Assembly (NCBI GenBank): GCA_965221695.1
Contig: OZ244905.1
Span: forward strand, 2,701,384-2,765,383
Length of the DNA: 64,000 bases
Reading direction: 5' to 3'
DNA from: Gammaproteobacteria bacterium
Lineage (GTDB): Bacteria > Pseudomonadota > Gammaproteobacteria > Eutrophobiales > Eutrophobiaceae
Below, in pieces: positions 5,666 to 40,375 of this stretch (position 1 is the stretch's first letter; every line of letters begins with the position of its first letter). The translations under genes were made by a program, and so were the position numbers. The notes under the pieces were generated by a model that was not told the origin of the DNA, ran no database searches, and was given only the letters and a program-made list of their open reading frames with translations.

Positions 5666-6532
5666 TCAACCCCAATTCAGTTTATCCCTGAGGATCTTGA
5701 AGTGATCATGGTCCGCAGGATGGATCAGCCGTATTTTCTTGTCCTTCTTCTGTATGTTCACCTTGTCGCCGGTAACCAGTTCACAGACGATTTCTCCGTC
5801 GCAGGTCAGGTAAGCGCGATCAATTTGCGGCGTACCGATGATGACTTCCACTACGTTGTTGCCGTCAATGACCACCGGGCGGTTACTCAGGGTATGCGGG
5901 CAGATGGGGACCAGCACCAGCGCGTTCAGCGCGGGATGCAATATCGGGCCTCCACCTGCCAGCGCGTAAGCGGTTGACCCGGTGGGAGAGGAGATGATCA
6001 TGCCGTCGGAACGTTGCCGGTGAAGAAAATTACCGTCAACAAAGGTCTCGAGTTCTATCAGCTTGGCGATATTGCCTTTTTGTATGATGACATCGTTGAA
6101 AGCGTGGCTTTCCATCAGGGTCTTGCTCTGGCTTTCGATTTCGCAGTGTAATTGAAAGCGTTCATCCTCGATGAAGTTACCGCGCAGGATTTCGTCCAGC
6201 CGGCGGACCACCGCATTCGCGGGAATATCTGCCAGGAATCCCAGGCGTCCGCGGTTGATGCCCAGTAACGGCACGTTGTAATCGGCCAACAGGTGAGCGG
6301 CCCGCAACATGGTGCCATCGCCACCTATGGCTATCGCGAGATCGCAGTTCATGCCGAAATATTCCGCATTTCCCTGCGGCAGATTCAGGTTGGGCACCAG
6401 CGTGGTGGAGAACTCATCTAAGATAACTTCCTTTTTATGTTCCTGGAGGTAGTCTATAACTGTCTGTAAAGTATAAATTATTTCAGAAGTGCTATTATTT
6501 GTAATGATAGCTATGGTGTTGAACATGGTCAT
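5666..6532 (-). CDS. nadK: NAD(+) kinase
   Basis: 288-aa product with the GGDGTML and NRGRLGFL motifs. Lies immediately upstream of recN, as in E. coli. Confidence 0.85.
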   Translation of the reverse strand: MTMFNTIAIITNNSTSEIIYTLQTVIDYLQEHKKEVILDEFSTTLVPNLNLPQGNAEYFGMNCDLAIAIGGDGTMLRAAHLLADYNVPLLGINRGRLGFLADIPANAVVRRLDEILRGNFIEDERFQLHCEIESQSKTLMESHAFNDVIIQKGNIAKLIELETFVDGNFLHRQRSDGMIISSPTGSTAYALAGGGPILHPALNALVLVPICPHTLSNRPVVIDGNNVVEVIIGTPQIDRAYLTCDGEIVCELVTGDKVNIQKKDKKIRLIHPADHDHFKILRDKLNWG

Positions 6533-7822: not shown

Positions 7823-8443
7823 ATGATGGTTGAAGAAAAACAAAATGCCGGCAACGGGGCAGAGCCTGTAACAAACGGGGGATCTTCCCCGGCTGAAGCA
7901 CGGTCAGAAGAGGAGATAACCGGAGCGGTACCCCTGGGTCAGGAGGAGGCCGGTGACGACCCGGACAAGATTTCTGAAGAGATTGCCGAACTCCAGCAGG
8001 AAAACGAACGGCTGAACCTGGAAGTCCGGGAACATGCCGACAACGCGTTGCGCGCCTCGGCGGAACTGGAGAATATCCGTAAACGCACTGCGCGCGATGT
8101 TGAGAATGCCCATAAGTACGCGCTGGAGCGCTTCCTTAATGAATTACTGCCGGTTATCGACAGTATGGAATTGGGCATGAACGCATCGCAGTCGGCGGAA
8201 GACATCGAGAGTTTGCGCGAAGGGATGGACCTTACCCTGAAGATGCTGCTCGACTGCCTGGAGAAGTTCGGGGTTAAAGCCATTGATCCGGCCGGTGATA
8301 AATTCGACCCCGAGTGGCATGAGGCCGTCTCCATGCAGGAACTGGAGGGCGCTGATTCAGGCAAGGTCATCAGCGTAATGCAAAAAGGCTATGAACTGAA
8401 CGGGCGACTGGTCAGACCGGCGATGGTAGTGGTTGCGAAATAG
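7823..8443 (+). CDS. grpE: nucleotide exchange factor GrpE
   Basis: GrpE coiled-coil and C-terminal domain are present (ELENIRKRTARDVENAHKYALERFLNELLPVID...GYELNGRLVRPAMVVVAK). The start is set at the first in-frame ATG; the ORF-track start at 7772 is a TTG. Confidence 0.85.
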   Translation: MMVEEKQNAGNGAEPVTNGGSSPAEARSEEEITGAVPLGQEEAGDDPDKISEEIAELQQENERLNLEVREHADNALRASAELENIRKRTARDVENAHKYALERFLNELLPVIDSMELGMNASQSAEDIESLREGMDLTLKMLLDCLEKFGVKAIDPAGDKFDPEWHEAVSMQELEGADSGKVISVMQKGYELNGRLVRPAMVVVAK

Positions 8444-8533
8444 TGGGGTCAGATTATGGGGCCTGGGCAATATCAGTTTGGTATTTCTGGCGATTTCAGC
8501 GTTTCACCGAACCTTGCTGTGTCCCGCGTAATC

Positions 8534-8562
8534 CTTGAATTTCGGGGTGATAACCCACACTT
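8534..8562 (+). promoter_or_regulatory. putative sigma-32 (RpoH) heat-shock promoter for dnaK
   Basis: cttgaat-N13-cccacactta matches the sigma-32 consensus CTTGAAA-N13-15-CCCCATNT. Lies ~50 bp upstream of dnaK. Confidence 0.45.
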
Positions 8563-8607
8563 ATATCTCTGGTAAGACAATAAAATTCTGAGCAATATAC
8601 AAGAGGC

Positions 8608-10542
8608 TTGAACATGAGCAAAATTATCGGCATAGACCTGGGCACGACCAATTCCTGCGTTGCCGTTCTGGAAGGCGGCCAGGCCAGGGTTATTGAGAAC
8701 AGCGAAGGCGGCAGAACCACGCCGTCCATCGTCGCATTTTCCGACGACGATGAAGTTCTGGTAGGGCAGTCGGCCAAGCGCCAGGCGGTCACCAACCCCA
8801 ACAACACCTTGTTTGCGGTCAAACGTTTGATCGGCCGGCGCTATGATGACAATGTTGTGCAGAAGGATATCAACATGGTTCCGTATAAAATCGTCAAGGC
8901 TGACAACGGCGATGCCTGGGTTGATGTAAAAGGTAAGAAGATGGCCCCCCCGGAGGTCTCGGCGCGCGTGCTGATGAAAATGAAGCAGACGGCTGAGGAT
9001 TACCTGGGTGAAAAAGTGACCGAGGCGGTGATTACCGTTCCGGCCTATTTCAATGATTCGCAACGCCAGGCGACCAAGGATGCAGGCAAGATCGCGGGGC
9101 TGGAAGTTCGGCGCATCATCAATGAGCCTACGGCCGCGGCGCTGGCCTATGGCATGGACAAGAAACAGGGCGACTCCAGGATTGCCGTCTATGACCTGGG
9201 CGGCGGCACGTTCGATGTATCCATCATTGAAATTGCCGAAGTGGACGGTGAGCACCAGTTCGAAGTACTCTCCACCAACGGCGATACGTTCCTGGGCGGC
9301 GAGGATTTTGACCTGCGTATCATCGATTTTCTGTGCGACGAATTCAAGAAGGACCAGGGTATCGACCTGCACAATGACCCGCTGGCCTTGCAGCGTTTGA
9401 AAGAGGCTGCGGAAAAGGCCAAGATCGAACTGTCATCCAGCCAGCAGACCGATATCAACCTGCCGTATATCACCGCGGATGCCGGCGGTCCGAAGCATCT
9501 CAACATAAAGATGAGCCGTTCCAAACTTGAATCACTGGTGGAAGACCTCGTTGATCGTACCATAGAGCCTTGCCGCGTAGCCCTGGAGGATGCCGGCTAT
9601 GCTGCAGCGGATATCACTGACGTCATCCTGGTAGGCGGACAGACCCGCATGCCCAAGGTACAGGAGAAGGTCAAGCAGTTTTTCAATAAAGAACCGCGCA
9701 AGGATGTCAACCCGGATGAAGCTGTTGCGGTGGGCGCGGCCATCCAGGCCGGTGTACTCGGCGGTGACGTGAAGGATGTGTTGCTGCTCGATGTCACGCC
9801 TCTCTCGCTGGGCATTGAAACTCTGGGCGGCGTGATGACCCGTCTCATCGAGAAGAATACGACGATCCCGACCAAGGCACAGCAAGTGTTCTCCACCGCG
9901 GATGATAACCAGACAGCGGTGACCGTGCACGTGTTGCAGGGCGAGCGCGAGATGGTCGCGGGCAACAAGTCCCTGGGCCGCTTCGACTTGTCGGACATAC
10001 CGCCTGCGCCCCGCGGCATACCCCAGATCGAGGTAACTTTTGATATCGACGCCAACGGCATCATGAATGTTTCGGCCAAGGACAAGGCCACCGGCAAGGA
10101 ACAATCCATCGTTATCAAGGCTTCCAGCGGGTTGTCGGATGAGGAAATCGAGAACATGGTCAAAGACGCGGAAGCCCATGCCGAGGAAGACCGGCAGGCA
10201 AAGGAATTGGTCGAGGCCCGCAACCTGGCGGAGAACCTGGTGCATTCAACGAAAAAATCCATGGAGGAACTGGGCGACAAGGTTGAAGAACAGGAGAAAA
10301 AAGACATCGAATCTGCAATAGCCGAGGTAGAGGAAACCGTTAAAGGGAATGACAAGGAGGCCATAGAGGAGAAAACCCGGAAACTGACCGAGATCGCGGG
10401 CAAACTTGCGGAGCGTGCATACCAGCAGGCCGCAGCGGCGGGCGCCAACGGTGAGGGCAAGCCCGCGGGCACGGATAACGGACCCGGCGATGAAAATGTC
10501 GTCGATGCAGAATTCGAGGAAGTGGATGACAACAAGAAGTAA
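8608..10542 (+). CDS. dnaK: molecular chaperone DnaK (Hsp70)
   Basis: 644-aa product with canonical Hsp70 motifs ([36 protein letters not shown]) and an acidic EEVDDNKK tail. Confidence 0.97.
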
Positions 10543-10553
10543 ATCGGCGAGAA

Positions 10554-11693
10554 ATGCAGGTTATGGCCGCAAAACGAGATTACTATGACGTTCTTGGCGT
10601 ATCAAAAAATGCGTCTGACGCCGATATAAAAAAAGCCTTCCGCCGCCTGGCGATGAAGTACCATCCGGATCGCAATCCGGATGACCAGGAAGCGGAGGAA
10701 AAATTCAAGGAGGCCAAGGAGGCAAATGACATCCTCAGCGACCAGCAGAAACGGGCGGCTTACGACCAGTTTGGCCATGCCGGGGTCAGCACTTCGGCCG
10801 GTGGCGCGGACGGCCAGGGTTTCAGCGGCTTCGGCGATATATTCGACAGTGTGTTCGGAGACATATTCGGCGCGCAAGGACGCGGCGGCCAACGCACCCA
10901 GTCCGGCGCTAACCTCCGTTACGACCTGGAATTGAACCTGGAGGAAGCCATTGCCGGCTCCACCATCAAGATACGGGTACCCAGGCTGATAAGCTGTAAT
11001 GACTGTTCAGGCAGCGGCGCCAAACGGGGATCGAGTCCGTCCCAGTGCCCTACCTGCAACGGCGCCGGACAGATCCGTATGCAACAGGGATTTTTCTCGG
11101 TGCAGCAGACCTGTCCCAAATGCCGCGGCAAAGGAAGCATCATCAATGATCCATGCCGCACGTGCAATGGGCAGGGCAGGGTCCGCGACAGCAAGACTAT
11201 TTCCGTAAAAGTCCCGCCCGGTGTCAATACCGGCGACCGGATACGCCTCACCGGCGAGGGTGAAGCCGGCGAGTACGGCGCCCCACCCGGCGATCTTTAC
11301 GTACATGTCATCGTCAAGGATCACGAGATATTTACCCGCGACGGTTCGGACCTGTACTGTGAAGTGCCAATCAGTTTTGCCGCCGCCGCCCTGGGCCGGG
11401 ATATAGAAATACCCACGCTGGACGGCAAAATCAAACTGCGCATCCCGCCGGAAACCCAGAGCGGCAGGTTGTTCCGCCTGCGCGGCAAGGGCGTGCGCTC
11501 GGTGCGTTCGGCTGCAAGAGGCGACCTGTTATGCCGCGTCGCGGTTGAGACTCCGGTAAACCTGAGCAAACAACAGAAAGACATCCTGGAATCCCTTGAG
11601 GATTCCATGGAGAACGATGAATCACGCTTCCGCCCTAAGGCCAGCAAGTGGTTCGACAGCGTGAAGAAATTTTTCGAAAACGCCAACCGCTGA
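10554..11693 (+). CDS. dnaJ: molecular chaperone DnaJ
   Basis: J-domain ([13 protein letters not shown]), G/F-rich linker, four CxxCxGxG zinc-finger repeats and a C-terminal domain. Confidence 0.95.
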
Positions 11694-36166: not shown

Positions 36167-36260
36167 TTCCGCAGCTTTGCCAACCGTTCTATGCGGTTGC
36201 CCTGCGCAGCGATGCAGGGATAATGTGCTGTACCGCATAATCAGCTACAATAACCAGCCC

Positions 36261-36347
36261 GGAGAGGTGCCAGAGTGGTTGAATGGGGCAGACTCGAAAT
36301 CTGTTGTACGCGTCAGCGTACCGTGGGTTCGAATCCCACCCTCTCCG
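36261..36347 (+). tRNA. tRNA-Ser (anticodon CGA)
   Basis: Folds by eye into a cloverleaf: acceptor ggagagg/cctctcc, 3-bp D stem, anticodon loop ctCGAaa, long variable arm gtacgcgtcagcgtac and T-arm cgtgggttcgaatcccac. CCA is not encoded. Confidence 0.85.
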
Positions 36348-36701
36348 TAACATTCATGCCACAGGCGCATCTGGCGCCTGTGGCATGAATGTTGATGCAA
36401 TGGGGTTCGAACCCACGGTAATTAAATACGGGTTCGACAAATTCGCTGGGAGCGAATTTGAACAGCGTAGCTGGCCCCGGAGGGGCAAACTACATGGATG
36501 TAGTTTGTAATCCCACCCTCTCCGTAACATTCATGGCACAGGCGCTTCTGTCGCCTGTGCCATGAATGTTGATGCAATGGGGTTCGAACCCACGGTAATT
36601 AAATACGGGTTCGACAAATTCGCTGGGAGCGAATTTGAACAGCGTAGCTGGCCCCGGAGGGGCAAACTACATGGATGTAGTTTGTAATCCCACCCTCTCC
36701 G
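36348..36701 (+). repeat. two tandem 177-bp direct repeats, each ending in a 17-nt copy of the tRNA-Ser 3' end (att-like)
   Basis: Units 36348-36524 and 36525-36701 each contain a perfect 13-14 bp stem hairpin (catgccacaggcgc..gcgcctgtggcatg vs catggcacaggcg..cgcctgtgccatg, with compensatory gcc<->ggc changes), a gggttcgaaccc palindrome and a terminal aatcccaccctctccg. Confidence 0.85.
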
Positions 36702-36705
36702 CCAT

Positions 36706-37896
36706 CTAATAGTCCGGTAAAGTCCGGAGTCTTCCAAGCGCTTCAATGAAATGTGCTAGTGACAGGATGGTTGTGTCCTGGCTGCCGGGGAATGTATCTT
36801 CGCCAGTGTAAACAACAAATTTCTGTTTTACCTTTAAGTCTTCACAGGCCATGTGAAAGCCTTTTTTCAAGGTTGGAGTTCGGCTTGCTTTGATCTCAAC
36901 GGCCCAGTATTCATCAAGACCAAACTCAATTACCAAATCAATTTCTGCCCCAGCAGATGTGCGATAGAAAAACGGATGAGCGCTTGAAGGTAAGGCGTTA
37001 ATAATGGTCTCAATGACAAACCCCTCCCAGCTTTTTCCGAATATAGGATGCCCCAACAAAGCTTCATAATTCGGAATTTGCAGCAAGGCATGCACAAGAC
37101 CGCTATCGCGTACATAGGTACGTGGTGATTTCACCAGCCGTTTTTTGACGTTCCCATGCCAAGGCTCTAGCCTGCGAACCAATAACAAATCAACCATGAG
37201 GTCCAGATATCGACTAACGGTGACACTCTCTACGCCAAGAGAGCTTGCGAGTTTTGACGCGTTCAGTAGTTCACCTTGTGTATGGGCAAGCATGGTCCAA
37301 AAGCGCATCAAGGTCGTTGCTGGAATTCTTGGTCCTAGCTGAGGGATGTCTCGTTCCAGATAGGTGCGAATAAAATTCTGCCGCCACTGGTGACTGGCCG
37401 CATCATCTTCAGCGGCATAGCTGTCGGGAAACCCACCACGTATCCAGAGCTTTTGTAAGGGCTCTCCGGATGTTTCTTCAATTTCAAAAAGGTTTAAGCC
37501 AGTCAGTTCAGAGTAATGAATGCGGCCAGCAAGGCTCTCAGAGCTTTGTTTTAGCAACTCATTGGTTGCCGATCCTAAAACAAGAAAGCGTCCGTTTCCG
37601 CGCCCCTCACGACGTCTGGCATCAATGATTCCGCGCAGTGACATAAACAAATCAGGGTAGCGTTGGACCTCATCGAGAATGACCAGCTTATCTGCATGTA
37701 GTTCTAGATAGTGGGCAGGGTCTTTGAGCTTTTGGAAATCCTCTGGGTTCTCGAGATCCAAATAAACAGATGGTTGCCCTTTGGCGATCTCATGGGCAAG
37801 CGTTGTCTTGCCAATCTGGCGCGGGCCAAGAATGGCAACAGCCGGATTTTGACTGAGACTTTTGATGATTTTCTGTGTAAGCTCTCTTTCATACAT
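36706..37896 (-). CDS. AAA+ ATPase, DUF4143-containing (COG1373-like)
   Basis: Walker A AILGPRQIGKTTLA, Walker B LVILDEVQ and a C-terminal DUF4143-like region. Start set at MYERELTQ (ORF-track start is 37971). Confidence 0.65.
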   Translation of the reverse strand: MYERELTQKIIKSLSQNPAVAILGPRQIGKTTLAHEIAKGQPSVYLDLENPEDFQKLKDPAHYLELHADKLVILDEVQRYPDLFMSLRGIIDARRREGRGNGRFLVLGSATNELLKQSSESLAGRIHYSELTGLNLFEIEETSGEPLQKLWIRGGFPDSYAAEDDAASHQWRQNFIRTYLERDIPQLGPRIPATTLMRFWTMLAHTQGELLNASKLASSLGVESVTVSRYLDLMVDLLLVRRLEPWHGNVKKRLVKSPRTYVRDSGLVHALLQIPNYEALLGHPIFGKSWEGFVIETIINALPSSAHPFFYRTSAGAEIDLVIEFGLDEYWAVEIKASRTPTLKKGFHMACEDLKVKQKFVVYTGEDTFPGSQDTTILSLAHFIEALGRLRTLPDY

Positions 37897-38276
37897 GCTA
37901 GCAATACTAACACAAAATATTAAATATGCAAGGTAAATGTTTTTGTGGTGATCTGTTTCCAATGAAGGCAAAGCGGGATTAGAACCCGCGATACGGTACC
38001 GTGTTCACAACAAAAACCGGCGCTTGGCGAGGAAGGTGTACAGGCGGGTGGTGAACAAGTCGCCGGTACGGCGAACTTTGCGAGGCACAAACCTCTTATC
38101 ACCCAATGTAATTCGGTTTGTATAGTCCGCAACATCCGTAATTGGTTTTGAAAATCCTGTGTCTATGGACAACCCCCCCATACTTGATTAGCATAAGTCA
38201 TAAGGAGGACCTATCGTGAACGTTGATTTCGTGACAAAGCGCCAGTCTGACAATCTCATGCAAATGCCGACCATCC

Positions 38277-38699: not shown

Positions 38700-39473
38700 A
38701 TGAACCAGAGAATGAGGATATTCATAGGGGCGCTGGGCGCGGGCGTGATCTTCATCGGCCTGCTCAGCCTGTTTTTCTCCGAAGGTTTCTTCGCCGACTT
38801 CCTGCTGGACCGGAATTCGAAGTTCATGCCCTACCCGGTCACGATACAGAATATCATGTGGCTGGTGTTCTTCATCGGGGCGGGAGAATTGCTGTCGCGC
38901 TACCTGCAGACGGACCGGGAAATCAGCCAGATCCGCCTGGGACTGTTGCCGGAGGACAGCACAACCCTATTGCGCAAGCAAGATCTGGGCGGCGTGTACC
39001 AGCGCGTCAAGGAAACCATGCACCCGGCGCCGGGCGCTGCGGAGGATTCCTATTTCCTGCAACGCCTGCTGTCCCGTTGTATCCTGCAGTTCCAGGTCAG
39101 CGGCGCCATTGATAAGGCAAACAACATGTTCAACTCCAGCCTGGAGTTGTTCCAGCACGAGGTCGAGCTGAGGTACAATGCCATTCGCTATATCGTCTGG
39201 CTGATCCCGACCCTGGGGTTCATCGGCACCGTGGTCGGCATCGCGCTGGCGCTCAGCAACGCCGGCAGCGTCGACAACTTCCAGGACCCCACCTTGCTGA
39301 AACAGCTTACCCAGAGTCTCGGCGTAGCGTTCTTTACCACCTTGCTGGCCTTGCTGCAATCCGCGGCGCTGATGTTCGCGCTGCATGTCGTACAAGGACA
39401 GGAGGAAGCGTCGCTGAACCGGATAGGGCAGTATTGCCTGGATAACCTGATTAACCGGTTGTACGAGACTTGA
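38700..39473 (+). CDS. MotA/TolQ/ExbB-family proton-channel subunit
   Basis: Topology TM1 - ~130-aa cytoplasmic domain - TM2/TM3, with the family-typical IVWLIPTLGFIGTVVGIALAL and GVAFFTTLLALLQSAALMF helices. Confidence 0.7.
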   Translation: MNQRMRIFIGALGAGVIFIGLLSLFFSEGFFADFLLDRNSKFMPYPVTIQNIMWLVFFIGAGELLSRYLQTDREISQIRLGLLPEDSTTLLRKQDLGGVYQRVKETMHPAPGAAEDSYFLQRLLSRCILQFQVSGAIDKANNMFNSSLELFQHEVELRYNAIRYIVWLIPTLGFIGTVVGIALALSNAGSVDNFQDPTLLKQLTQSLGVAFFTTLLALLQSAALMFALHVVQGQEEASLNRIGQYCLDNLINRLYET

Positions 39474-39493
39474 TGGGGGTCGCCTGCGCGAGA

Positions 39494-39517
39494 CAAATCG
39501 GCAGGACAGCCGATTTG
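39494..39517 (+). terminator. hairpin after the MotA-like gene (possible terminator/attenuator)
   Basis: caaatcggc-aggaca-gccgatttg, perfect 9-bp stem. No U-tract follows. Confidence 0.3.
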
Positions 39518-39652
39518 CGCAGCGACTGCTGCCCGCAGGGTTGTATCCAGGGAAGGATGCAATGAGTGACGGAAGGAGAGAGGAATGACGGGTGGGTTCA
39601 AGAATGACGGTTAAGGGGCGAAGGGAGGTGTCGGCAAGTGGGTGTCGGCAAG

Positions 39653-39715: not shown

Positions 39716-40375
39716 ATGCCGGTAAAACGCGATGCGGACGGGAACATCATAAAGGAACAGACAAGAACTACCGGAGTGGGTGATCCGGTGTTGCCGACCT
39801 TGGGGCGCTCCACTGTCGGCGCCACGGTCGGCCCCGGCAGGTCTCCCGAGACCAACCCCGGCCAGTCATCGGGTTATGAGGCCCAGACGGTGCTGGCAGG
39901 TTCGCCCCGTGTCGCGGAAGGGGAAGCCAGGACCCGGATCTACCGGCCCGGCAGGACGGGGCGGCAACAGCCGGAGACACCGGCTCCAGGTACGGGCGCT
40001 GAGGACGCGACGTCCTCTGCCATGGACGACCCGCCCGTAGGCTGGCTGGTCGTCGTCAGTGGGCCGGGACAGGGGAACTACATGGCCGTCGGCAACGGTT
40101 CGAATTCAGTCGGACGCGATGAGCGCGAGCGAGTGCGCGTGGATTTCGGTGACGAGTTGATCTCCCGCAGCGACCATTCAACGATCACCTACGATCCCAG
40201 GGGTAAGAAGTTTTACCTGCAGCACGGCGCCGGAAAAAACCTCACTTACCTGGAAGGCAAACCTGTCCTGGCGCCGACCGAACTGCCCGGGTTTTCCCGG
40301 ATCACGATTGGGAACACCGAATTGCTGTTCATCCCGCTCTGTTGCGATCAGTTTGACTGGGACGACTACACGTAA
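39716..40375 (+). CDS. FHA-domain protein (disordered Pro/Gly-rich N-terminus, C-terminal FHA)
   Basis: GWLVVVSGPGQGNYMAVGNGSNSVGRDERERVRVDFGDELISRSDHSTITYDPRGKKFYLQHGAGKNLTYLEGKPV is an FHA core. ATG start lies 6 nt after gaaggggagg; ORF-track start is GTG 39638. Confidence 0.7.
   Translation: MPVKRDADGNIIKEQTRTTGVGDPVLPTLGRSTVGATVGPGRSPETNPGQSSGYEAQTVLAGSPRVAEGEARTRIYRPGRTGRQQPETPAPGTGAEDATSSAMDDPPVGWLVVVSGPGQGNYMAVGNGSNSVGRDERERVRVDFGDELISRSDHSTITYDPRGKKFYLQHGAGKNLTYLEGKPVLAPTELPGFSRITIGNTELLFIPLCCDQFDWDDYT

Follow-up and report, generated by a model that had tools for sequence, protein, structure and literature searches.

The stretch of DNA analysed here, 64,000 nucleotides (nt) of a contig from an uncultured gammaproteobacterium and hereafter called the window in its full length, carries a single tRNA gene, a tRNA-Ser(CGA) called by ARAGORN, and directly behind it two tandem units of 177 nt, each of which ends in a copy of the tRNA 3' end. 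Within each unit lies a core of four hairpins that has relatives in many other genomes, beside tRNA genes and elsewhere. We have little doubt that the two units are tRNA-linked repeats (TLRs), the kind of repeat that is found behind tRNA and 5S rRNA genes in Escherichia coli.

A tRNA-Ser(CGA) gene and two tandem units

The tRNA-Ser(CGA) gene occupies positions 36261-36347 of the + strand (ARAGORN 36260-36348; Rfam RF00005, 58.6 bits); it does not encode CCA and is followed by TAA. Tandem Repeats Finder (TRF) reports a 177-bp period with 2.1 copies and 97% identity over 36332-36701, and comparison of the units with each other places unit 1 at 36348-36524 and unit 2, which differs from it at four positions, at 36525-36701. 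Both lie on the + strand, like the tRNA, and the array begins one base 3' of it. The 16-nt sequence AATCCCACCCTCTCCG, which runs from the T-loop to the end of the tRNA, has three exact copies in the 64 kb (at 36332, 36509 and 36686) against a chance expectation of 0.07, and these three copies give the order tRNA, unit 1, unit 2. The 3' end of both units is thus identical to that of the upstream tRNA over 16 nt, whereas in each E. coli TLR the 18-19 bp at the 3' end match exactly those with which the upstream tRNA or rRNA ends (PMC8144298); the shared end is shorter here because CCA is not encoded in this tRNA gene. After the last unit comes CCA (36702-36704), so that the distal copy resembles a native gene end, as in the relative L004, in which the tRNA itself is followed by CCA. 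An identical array is present on two metagenome contigs of the same strain (L001 and L002).

All parts of a unit follow one another in a fixed order, namely a trailer hairpin, an inverted copy of the T-arm, a linker with GGGTTCGA, the 70-nt four-hairpin core, and one base followed by AATCCCACCCTCTCCG; the order is that of the 178-bp units of E. coli tyrT. The predicted fold of a whole unit on the + strand has -94.1 kcal/mol (z = -9.0 against shuffles). An inverted-repeat search located the trailer hairpin, which in unit 1 (36349-36393, +) consists of a perfect 20-bp stem with a 5-nt loop (RNAfold -37.8 kcal/mol), has no U-tract and draws no terminator call. Its counterpart in unit 2 (36526-36570, +) has 19 bp and holds all four differences between the units, which fall within the first 45 nt. 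Two of these (36359/36536, C to G, and 36383/36560, G to C) are the two sides of one pair, exchanged from C:G to G:C, the third (36369/36546, A to T) lies in the loop, and the fourth (36374/36551, G to T) opens the closing pair. Behind the hairpin, the inverted copy of the T-arm and of the end of the variable arm (36401-36420 and 36578-36597, +), found by the same search, is complementary to 36319-36338 of the tRNA at 19 of 20 positions (95%), and inverted tRNA 3' segments of an equivalent kind are also present in L026, L081, L080, L086 and L109 and in the tyrT units of E. coli. A direct copy of the 5' half of the T-arm with the start of the T-loop (GGGTTCGA; 36430-36437 and 36607-36614, +) abuts the core. 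The unit closes with the copy of the tRNA 3' end (36509-36524 and 36686-36701, corresponding to 36332-36347 in the tRNA, all +), which comprises the end of the T-loop, the 3' strands of T-stem and acceptor stem, and the discriminator. Rather than one contiguous block of 16 nt, the tRNA homology in a unit comprises the 3' part of a tRNA, split in the T-loop by the 70-nt core.

The core of unit 1 (36438-36507, +) folds into the hairpins P1 (36438-36460, loop UGGGA), P2 (36463-36473), P3 (36475-36485, loop GGA) and P4 (36486-36507, loop region AUGGAU). That of unit 2 (36615-36684, +) is identical, with P1 at 36615-36637, P2 at 36640-36650, P3 at 36652-36662 and P4 at 36663-36684. These assignments follow from the match to a covariance model of the core, R1, which is described below (36430-36515, 81.7 bits, E = 2.8e-16 in unit 1; 36607-36692, 81.7 bits in unit 2), from the covariation of the family and from the statistics of its GGA loops. 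In both units the loops of P1, P3 and P4 contain GGA, which makes three per unit and six in the array.

Some 37 nt 5' of the tRNA lies a promoter-like site (TTGCCC, 16 nt, GATAAT; 36197-36224, +) that scores a weak 9 of 12 in a consensus scan and resembles the sequence upstream of the tRNA in the relatives L003-L005; it is a candidate promoter for a transcript of tRNA and repeats. A terminator scan detected no terminator-like site between the tRNA and 36776.

An original prediction made for this locus had described a tRNA-Ser(CGA) with two tandem 177-bp units that regenerate the tRNA 3' end, and ARAGORN, Rfam, TRF and the exact matches bear this out. Its measurements need correction, since it put the shared tRNA end at 17 nt, where we find 16, and the hairpin stem at 13-14 bp, where unit 1 has 20 bp and unit 2 has 19. 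Of the reciprocal compensatory changes that it had read between the units, one C:G to G:C swap stands, exactly one pair and no more, and a single compensatory pair is weak evidence by itself because template switching within a perfect palindrome can transfer a change between the arms without selection. The inverted T-arm copy, the copy of GGGTTCGA, and the contrast between CCA after the last unit and TAA after the tRNA were absent from that description.

A widespread four-hairpin core

We aligned 61 cores (alignment A2) and built the covariance model R1 from this alignment. A2 supports the four helices: the paired share of its cells is 91.3% (77.7% in shuffles), and changes on both sides of a pair are found in 220 cells, against 66.5 in shuffles and 38-70 in controls with slid partners. 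R1 finds 134 copies in 100 loci, with 93.2% of cells paired and double-sided changes in 24 of the 25 pairs, counts that lean towards the structure because this 134-core alignment (A3) was fitted to R1. For P1, 8 of 9 pairs are doubly changed in copies not chosen by the exact pattern. Strong conservation of structure, sought among homologous loci in line with the original prediction, is seen in both the 61-core and the 134-core alignment, and the four core helices are under selection.

The loops are conserved in a different manner from the stems. GGA is present in the P1 loop of 133 of the 134 cores and in the P4 loop of 124, mostly as AGGGAU, AUGGAU, AGGAU or AGGAC, and P4 stems are wholly different between genera with the loop retained; the sequence of the P1 stem is nearly invariant across orders. 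Most loops conform to A(N)GGA(N), and a hairpin with such a loop is the form bound by CsrA/RsmA proteins.

A scan of one genome per species for the exact P1 sequence CAAATTCGCNGGGAGCGAATTTG, the first 23 nt of the core, yielded at least 120 stretches, with 138 exact-P1 copies, mostly across Gammaproteobacteria (Xanthomonadales/Lysobacterales, Methylococcales, Halomonas, Salinicola, Rheinheimera and Alishewanella). Among the matches listed, further carriers are Microbulbifer, Pluralibacter and many metagenome-assembled genomes (MAGs), one stretch coming from a Burkholderiales MAG; a tRNA gene lies within 400 nt of 59 of the 138 copies, on the same strand in 58 of these 59, with the core downstream of the tRNA in 43 cases and upstream in 15; 79 of the 138 copies lie more than 400 nt from any tRNA; and TCGA directly precedes the core in 62 of 138, mostly as GGTTCGA. 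The tRNAs beside cores are those for Ser (four anticodons), Gln, Val, Arg, Asp, Glu, Lys, Tyr and others.

Downstream copies share the build of the units in the window, that is, a terminator or hairpin, an inverted 3' part of the local tRNA, GGTTCGA, the core, and AATCC with the local acceptor strand. Two or more cores stand within 400 nt of each other in 19 of the 100 loci, with spacings concentrated around 155-183 nt. Five tandem units of 173-176 bp, four of them identical, lie behind a tRNA-Ser(GGA) in a gammaproteobacterial MAG (L080 6900-8000, - strand), where the core is nearly identical to that of the window and the 3' end matches the local tRNA. L086 has one unit behind a tRNA-Ser(GCU), again with a core nearly identical to that of the window. 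In Rhodanobacter lycopersici and R. soli (L081, L083) a unit comes after a tRNA-Ser(CGA), as in the window, and in Alishewanella (L051) one comes after a tRNA-Ser(GGA); Dyella is a further carrier.

The window itself holds a third, solo core at 39486-39570 (+), in the spacer between a MotA/ExbB gene (stop at 39473) and an FHA gene (probable ATG at 39717), both recognised by their Pfam domains. R1 scores it at 45.7 bits (E = 2e-8); its P1 is compensated (CAAATCGGC AGGAC AGCCGATTTG), and its P4 loop is AGGGAA.

Copies of the core were also seen in several other settings. L006 (~1235-1340), L025 (~5805-5915), L036, L113 and L116 have a tRNA-Ser pseudo-copy whose D-loop holds a core (directly behind GAGTGGCTGA), just 5' of an intact tRNA-Ser. 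Methylobacter and its relatives (L016 5387-5517, L017, L022, L044, L085 and L118) carry a core at one and the same site, between genes that otherwise overlap at ATGA; GGCATGA flanks the core on both sides in L016, L017, L022 and L085, with two copies of the core in L016, and L024 and L064 have a similar core at a different site, after CCTGA/TCTGA. The P4 loop of the Methylobacter-type cores, AGGA, is ~9 nt from the downstream ATG, which itself lies within the P4 stem, and a core of this type looks like a portable module for translational control of the CsrA type. In L054 (3700-3900), which is listed with L063, L067, L069, L078, L094, L111, L122 and L124 (Rheinheimera and relatives), GGA hairpins flank the core (GCAUGGAUGC on the 5' side, CAGGGAUG on the 3' side) and a terminator follows, giving five GGA in ~120 nt; this locus resembles a dedicated small RNA gene of the Csr/Rsm type.

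Kinship with the tRNA-linked repeats of Escherichia coli

TLRs were first described by Egan and Landy in 1978, with Rudd (1999) also cited for them, and E. coli has 22 at 10 loci, with no function known; an early claim that placed RtT in the stringent response was withdrawn (PMC8144298). The three TLRs rrA, rrB and rrF are situated behind 5S rRNA genes, and their RNAs arise by processing of the rRNA transcript close to the repeated 3' end; RrA, RrB and RrF bind Hfq and CsrA in vitro, and CsrA binding is lost when three GGA motifs are mutated (PMC8144298). R1 matches the core of E. coli rrB, between T1 and T2 of rrnB (L129 332-418), at 76.1 bits (E = 2.9e-16). All four hairpins are found there, P1 reading CAAATCCGCC GGGA GCGGATTTG and P4 GGCGGGC AGGAC GCCCGCC, and on either side of the core stands sequence copied from the upstream RNA's 3' end (GAGTAGGA, core, ATAAACTGCCAGGCAT). 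TLRs of the rrA/rrB/rrF type therefore have the same four-hairpin core as the units in the window, placed downstream on the same strand and within a copy of a stable-RNA 3' end. The host of rrB is a 5S rRNA, however, whereas it is a tRNA here, and rrB is a single copy between the terminators T1 and T2, with no array and no obvious inverted copy; RrB has been studied biochemically in E. coli, while the units in the window are known from the sequence of an uncultured gammaproteobacterium. The rrB core is not represented by a family in Rfam 15. Many cloning vectors use the rrnB T1-T2 region as their terminator cassette, and a full TLR core with two GGA hairpins lies within that region (L129 332-418).

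The arrangement in tandem has its counterpart at the E. coli tyrT/tyrV locus, where a 178-bp unit is present in 3.1 copies behind tyrV and once more between tyrT and tyrV. This unit consists of a degenerate inverted tRNA-Tyr 3' part, GGTTCGA, hairpins that include GCCC-GAAG-GGC, and AATCCTTCCCCCACCACCA; the annotated RttR RNA is one such unit and ends exactly at the CCA of the pseudo-tRNA, and the Rfam family RtT (RF00391) scores 133-138 bits on four E. coli units. The two loci agree in having tandem units of similar length (178 against 177 bp) directly behind a tRNA, with a tRNA 3' end in each and the same order of parts, AATCC and the acceptor strand coming last. They differ in that P1 is degenerate in the tyrT/tyrV units, the P4 loop is GCAG/GAAG and not A(N)GGA(N), and the tRNA is a tRNA-Tyr. 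RNAs of the RtT family have also been detected beside Asn and Lys tRNA genes in Actinobacillus (PMC4986893).

Other RNA families were compared with the units as well. An Rfam scan of the units returned only chance microRNA-like matches on the long hairpin, and a literature search for the P1 sequence string gave no match; a match to sX4 (32 bits) was rejected, as it covers the tRNA plus its trailer. The small RNA sponges CsrB/CsrC and RsmX/Y/Z share with the units the presence of multiple GGA loops of the A(N)GGA(N) type in hairpins, but they have promoters of their own, where the units are predicted to use that of the tRNA, and the TLR P1 stem is conserved in sequence. The Rfam models CsrB, CsrC, RsmX, RsmY and RsmZ have no match in the window. 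GacA/UvrY boxes (TGTAAGN6CTTACA) with up to three mismatches number 11 in the window against 12.5 expected, none of them upstream of the tRNA and the nearest inside it. We also discarded a match to RsmY in the core array of L019 (28.8 bits against a gathering threshold of 57), which is driven by one GGA hairpin plus a terminator and is no evidence of membership. 3'ETS-leuZ, from the glyW-cysT-leuZ operon, is an RNA sponge derived from a tRNA spacer (PMC8144298). Like the RNAs that we propose here, it is a functional RNA freed from a tRNA precursor by processing, with an output tied to tRNA transcription; unlike them, it pairs with small RNAs, is unrepeated, and has no similarity to the units in sequence or structure.

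Origin and possible function of the units

The explanation that best accounts for these data overall, and which we consider likely, is that the units are TLRs which are transcribed with the tRNA, cut out at their tRNA-like 3' ends and, as predicted from their loops, bind CsrA. A single transcript would start at the tRNA promoter, for which the site at 36197-36224 is the candidate, and would continue through the tRNA, unit 1 and unit 2; such read-through is suggested by the lack of a terminator-like site before 36776 together with the lack of a U-tract in the trailer hairpin. The tRNA-like 3' end of each unit would be recognised by the enzymes responsible for trimming tRNA 3' ends, which would release RNAs of ~170 nt, as E. 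coli RttR and RrB suggest by analogy. The GGA loops of P1 and P4, and here also of P3, would then bind the CsrA/RsmA dimer, as E. coli RrB binds CsrA in vitro, and the amount of free CsrA would thereby be coupled to stable-RNA transcription, that is, to growth rate. The array would grow and shrink by unequal recombination or slippage between the direct repeats, with the native tRNA end and its CCA staying distal; growth by unequal recombination is probable. That titration of CsrA is the function of the units is plausible, though we stop just short of favouring it.

A number of observations weigh against this explanation. R1 scores just 9.5-13 bits on the E. coli tyrT units, and RF00391 (gathering threshold 45 bits) has no match in the window even at E up to 10, so that architecture and intermediates are what ties the units to the TLRs of E. 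coli tRNA operons. One such intermediate is the sister unit L040, which has a canonical core by a tRNA-Gln and with which RF00391 aligns end to end (35.1 bits, E = 2e-5); the tyrT units look like degenerate members that lost the P1 and P4 GGA loops. The 19 TLRs in E. coli tRNA operons are predicted not to bind CsrA (InvenireSRNA score <0.01), and deletion or overexpression of rrA, rrB and rrF leads to only modest phenotypes (PMC8144298). CsrA mainly reads the GGA loop, which leaves the near-invariant P1 stem unexplained, and another partner or recognition at the DNA level may be involved. The lean of the A3 pair counts belongs here as well, as does the orientation of solo cores relative to the upstream open reading frame (ORF), which is the same in 22 cases and opposite in 13, a weak and noisy co-orientation. 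A motif search detected no csrA gene in the 64-kb window, a result that says nothing about the whole genome.

Finally, the proposed mechanism does not explain how a unit arose with tRNA sequence on both sides of the core and with an inverted copy. In L081 (3950-4030) and L026 (5160-5240), which are of the Rhodanobacter type, the tRNA 3' end, the trailer and the terminator form a perfect palindrome with ~30 bp per arm, which is centred on the terminator loop and runs back into the inverted copy of the tRNA end. This suggests that units originated by fold-back or template-switch synthesis at hairpins, or by conversion of an incoming unit to the local tRNA.

Sister genomes separate the units from the variability of the DNA around them. 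The DUF1015 protein encoded upstream has a graded series of homologues in uncultured Gammaproteobacteria, and in L003-L005 (79-83% protein identity) the order is DUF1015, an SDR gene, a tRNA-Ser(CGA) pseudo-copy, a spacer of ~200 nt and the intact tRNA. Each pseudo-copy (L003 8095-8270, L004 8095-8270 and L005 10985-11150) comprises a complete tRNA 5' part up to GGGTTCGA, a core in the T-loop, and a degenerate acceptor 3' end; the core is homologous to that of the window, with the same P1 and the same P4 stem (GCAAACTAC...). Reading the pseudo-copies as functional tRNAs that bear an intron or an extended elbow was rejected, as ARAGORN makes no call on them and the 3' strand of their acceptor stem is degenerate. 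Such pseudo-copies would result more simply if the DNA from the GGGTTCGA of an upstream tRNA to the GGGTTCGA of the following TLR were deleted. Cores with a variant P1 were also noted in the ftsJ-ftsH spacer of L003 (714-798, +), with no copy at that site in the window, and in the serA-DUF1015 spacer of L005 (5829-5913, -), antisense to both flanking genes, a site that is empty in the window.

On the 3' side of the intact tRNA, L003 carries GmrSD, a transposase and a group II intron reverse transcriptase, and L004 carries TacAT and a nucleotidyltransferase; in L005, two intact tRNA-Ser(CGA) genes bracket an AbiEi/AbiEii island with an SDR gene fragment (8162-11437). The DUF4143 ATPase and the FHA/MotA cluster that occupy this flank in the window are absent from it in L003-L005, a comparison that the original prediction had proposed for sister genomes. 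The DUF4143/AAA_14 ATPase gene (36706-37971, -) is convergent with the tRNA transcript and ends 4 nt past the last repeat. With a GC content of 0.47, compared with ~0.57 in its surroundings, and with no counterpart at the same position in L003-L005, it was probably acquired horizontally. The flank of tRNA-Ser(CGA) is a genuine variable hotspot, independent of the repeats, and the core is a conserved resident of the tRNA locus, not debris of an island.

This distinction bears on the origin that had first been proposed for the units, insertion by an integrase at a tRNA attB site, twice in tandem. In such a history, two elements would have entered the tRNA-Ser at its 3' end and lost their cargo by deletion, leaving attL/attR-like repeats at a decayed hotspot. 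Integrases that target tRNAs do leave direct repeats of the tRNA 3' end that start in the T-loop, and the CCA-bearing native end indeed sits distal in the array, next to an ATPase gene of low GC; the hypervariable flank in relatives, with the duplicated tRNA around the AbiE island of L005, is of the same tenor. However, no integrase or recombinase domain is present in the large ORFs between 29985 and 58126 (Pfam), the absence of an integrase having been remarked from the outset, and the 160 nt between the repeats contain no gene and no cargo. Their interior is a conserved, covarying structure shared with E. coli rather than decayed cargo, the tRNA homology is split (GGGTTCGA, 70-nt core, AATCC...) and not a contiguous copy, and the same composite unit recurs, with no integrases, beside more than 10 tRNA species, across dozens of genera, as well as at tyrT and rrnB of E. 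coli. BLAST comparison of the unit with phages and plasmids gave no match, nor did a search for the trailer hairpin in viral contigs. The P1 pattern has two matches only in viral contigs, and examination of their flanks showed a usual unit embedded in a tRNA fragment (L126) and a solo core without the T-loop flank (L127); we found no full-length element that has an integrase and whose attP equals the junction between units (GTAGTTTGTAATCCCACCCTCTCCGTAACATTCATG). We regard integrase scars as very improbable, and this reading is to be dropped. The notion of an old integration hotspot survives for the flank of the tRNA and not for the units, which are separate from it.

The varied contexts of the core raise the different possibility of selfish mobile DNA, in which a non-autonomous core or unit is moved in trans by a transposase or recombinase that reads the hairpins, in the manner of REP/RAYT or IS200/IS605-type elements, so that the hairpins would serve recognition as DNA and not as RNA, at a site GA|A such as the T-loop GGTTCGA|A. 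Cores occur in tRNA pseudo-copies, in both T-loops and D-loops, in the copied 3' end of 5S, in spacers within operons, and between overlapping genes with GGCATGA on both sides. Mobility would also account for the many copies far from any tRNA (the 79 of 138 among the matches listed), for the base before the core, which is almost always A and mostly part of GA, for the near-invariance of the P1 stem across orders, and for near-identical cores (the same P4, GCAAACTAC...) behind three different tRNA-Ser genes in related genomes. Against this, neither terminal inverted repeats nor a consistent target duplication nor an associated transposase was seen, the loops are kept as A(N)GGA(N), the RNA-binding motif of CsrA, while the stems vary freely, cores near tRNAs are on the tRNA strand in 58 of 59 cases among the matches listed, and the E. 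coli homologue is a processed, protein-binding RNA (PMC8144298). Nor does the element look like a miniature inverted-repeat transposable element, as its inverted repeats are internal hairpins and T-arm copies and the junctions GGTTCGA|core|AATCC show no duplication. An IS200/IS605-like or integron-like insertion of the core into the T-loop (target GA|A) was likewise rejected for lack of a transposase, a target duplication and terminal repeats, and this lack leaves insertion as a rival for the solo copies only. We judge the mobile-DNA account unlikely; mobility and an RNA function of the core are compatible with each other.

A purely cis-acting role is similarly improbable. It would make the units a processing signal, a decoy or protective 3' structure, or a zone of Rho-dependent termination on the tRNA transcript, with no RNA acting in trans. 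The units do lie in the 3' trailer of the tRNA, each ending in a tRNA-like 3' end that processing enzymes would be expected to recognise, and the T-arm of the tRNA itself can pair over 19 bp with its inverted copy when the precursor folds as predicted. Transcription of E. coli tyrT ends by Rho inside the repeats. A role in cis, however, leaves unexplained the solo cores far from tRNAs, including that at 39486-39570, as well as the near-universal GGA loops and the amplification to five copies in L080, and discrete RNAs exist in E. coli, where RttR is annotated and RrB has been mapped (PMC8144298). The explanation as TLR units processed from the tRNA transcript remains the one that we prefer.

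The original prediction had also considered that the region might be an unrecognised tRNA-linked array of structured RNA. The array is indeed structured, with very strong conservation of the structure, but its family is already known as that of the TLRs (PMC8144298); what is new here is a TLR array in an uncultured gammaproteobacterium. Beyond the open-access literature that we searched, our data add the breadth of the family, a core supported by covariation, and the near-universal GGA loops. The model R1 can serve to annotate the element, of which only RtT is represented in Rfam 15. When genomes are annotated, repeats of a tRNA 3' end that are of the TLR type should not be counted as att sites of islands.

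Our findings show that TLRs are not an oddity of E. coli. They form a widely conserved family with a strongly covarying four-hairpin RNA, near-universal GGA loops and more than 130 relatives, of which RrA, RrB and RrF, the only TLRs with biochemical partners (CsrA and Hfq), represent the general form, and beside which the copies in E. coli tRNA operons look degenerate. We speculate, with considerable reservation, that the TLR core is a mostly gammaproteobacterial module, carried on stable-RNA operons, that offers CsrA two GGA hairpins; free CsrA would in this way follow tRNA and rRNA synthesis, and arrays of 2-5 units would set the dose; the spread of the core into mRNA spacers, as at 39486-39570 and before the start codons of Methylobacter genes, would place those genes under CsrA, and the TLRs of E. 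coli tRNA operons would be degenerate relics. Titration of CsrA coupled to stable-RNA synthesis thus becomes a concrete and testable hypothesis for the TLR family.

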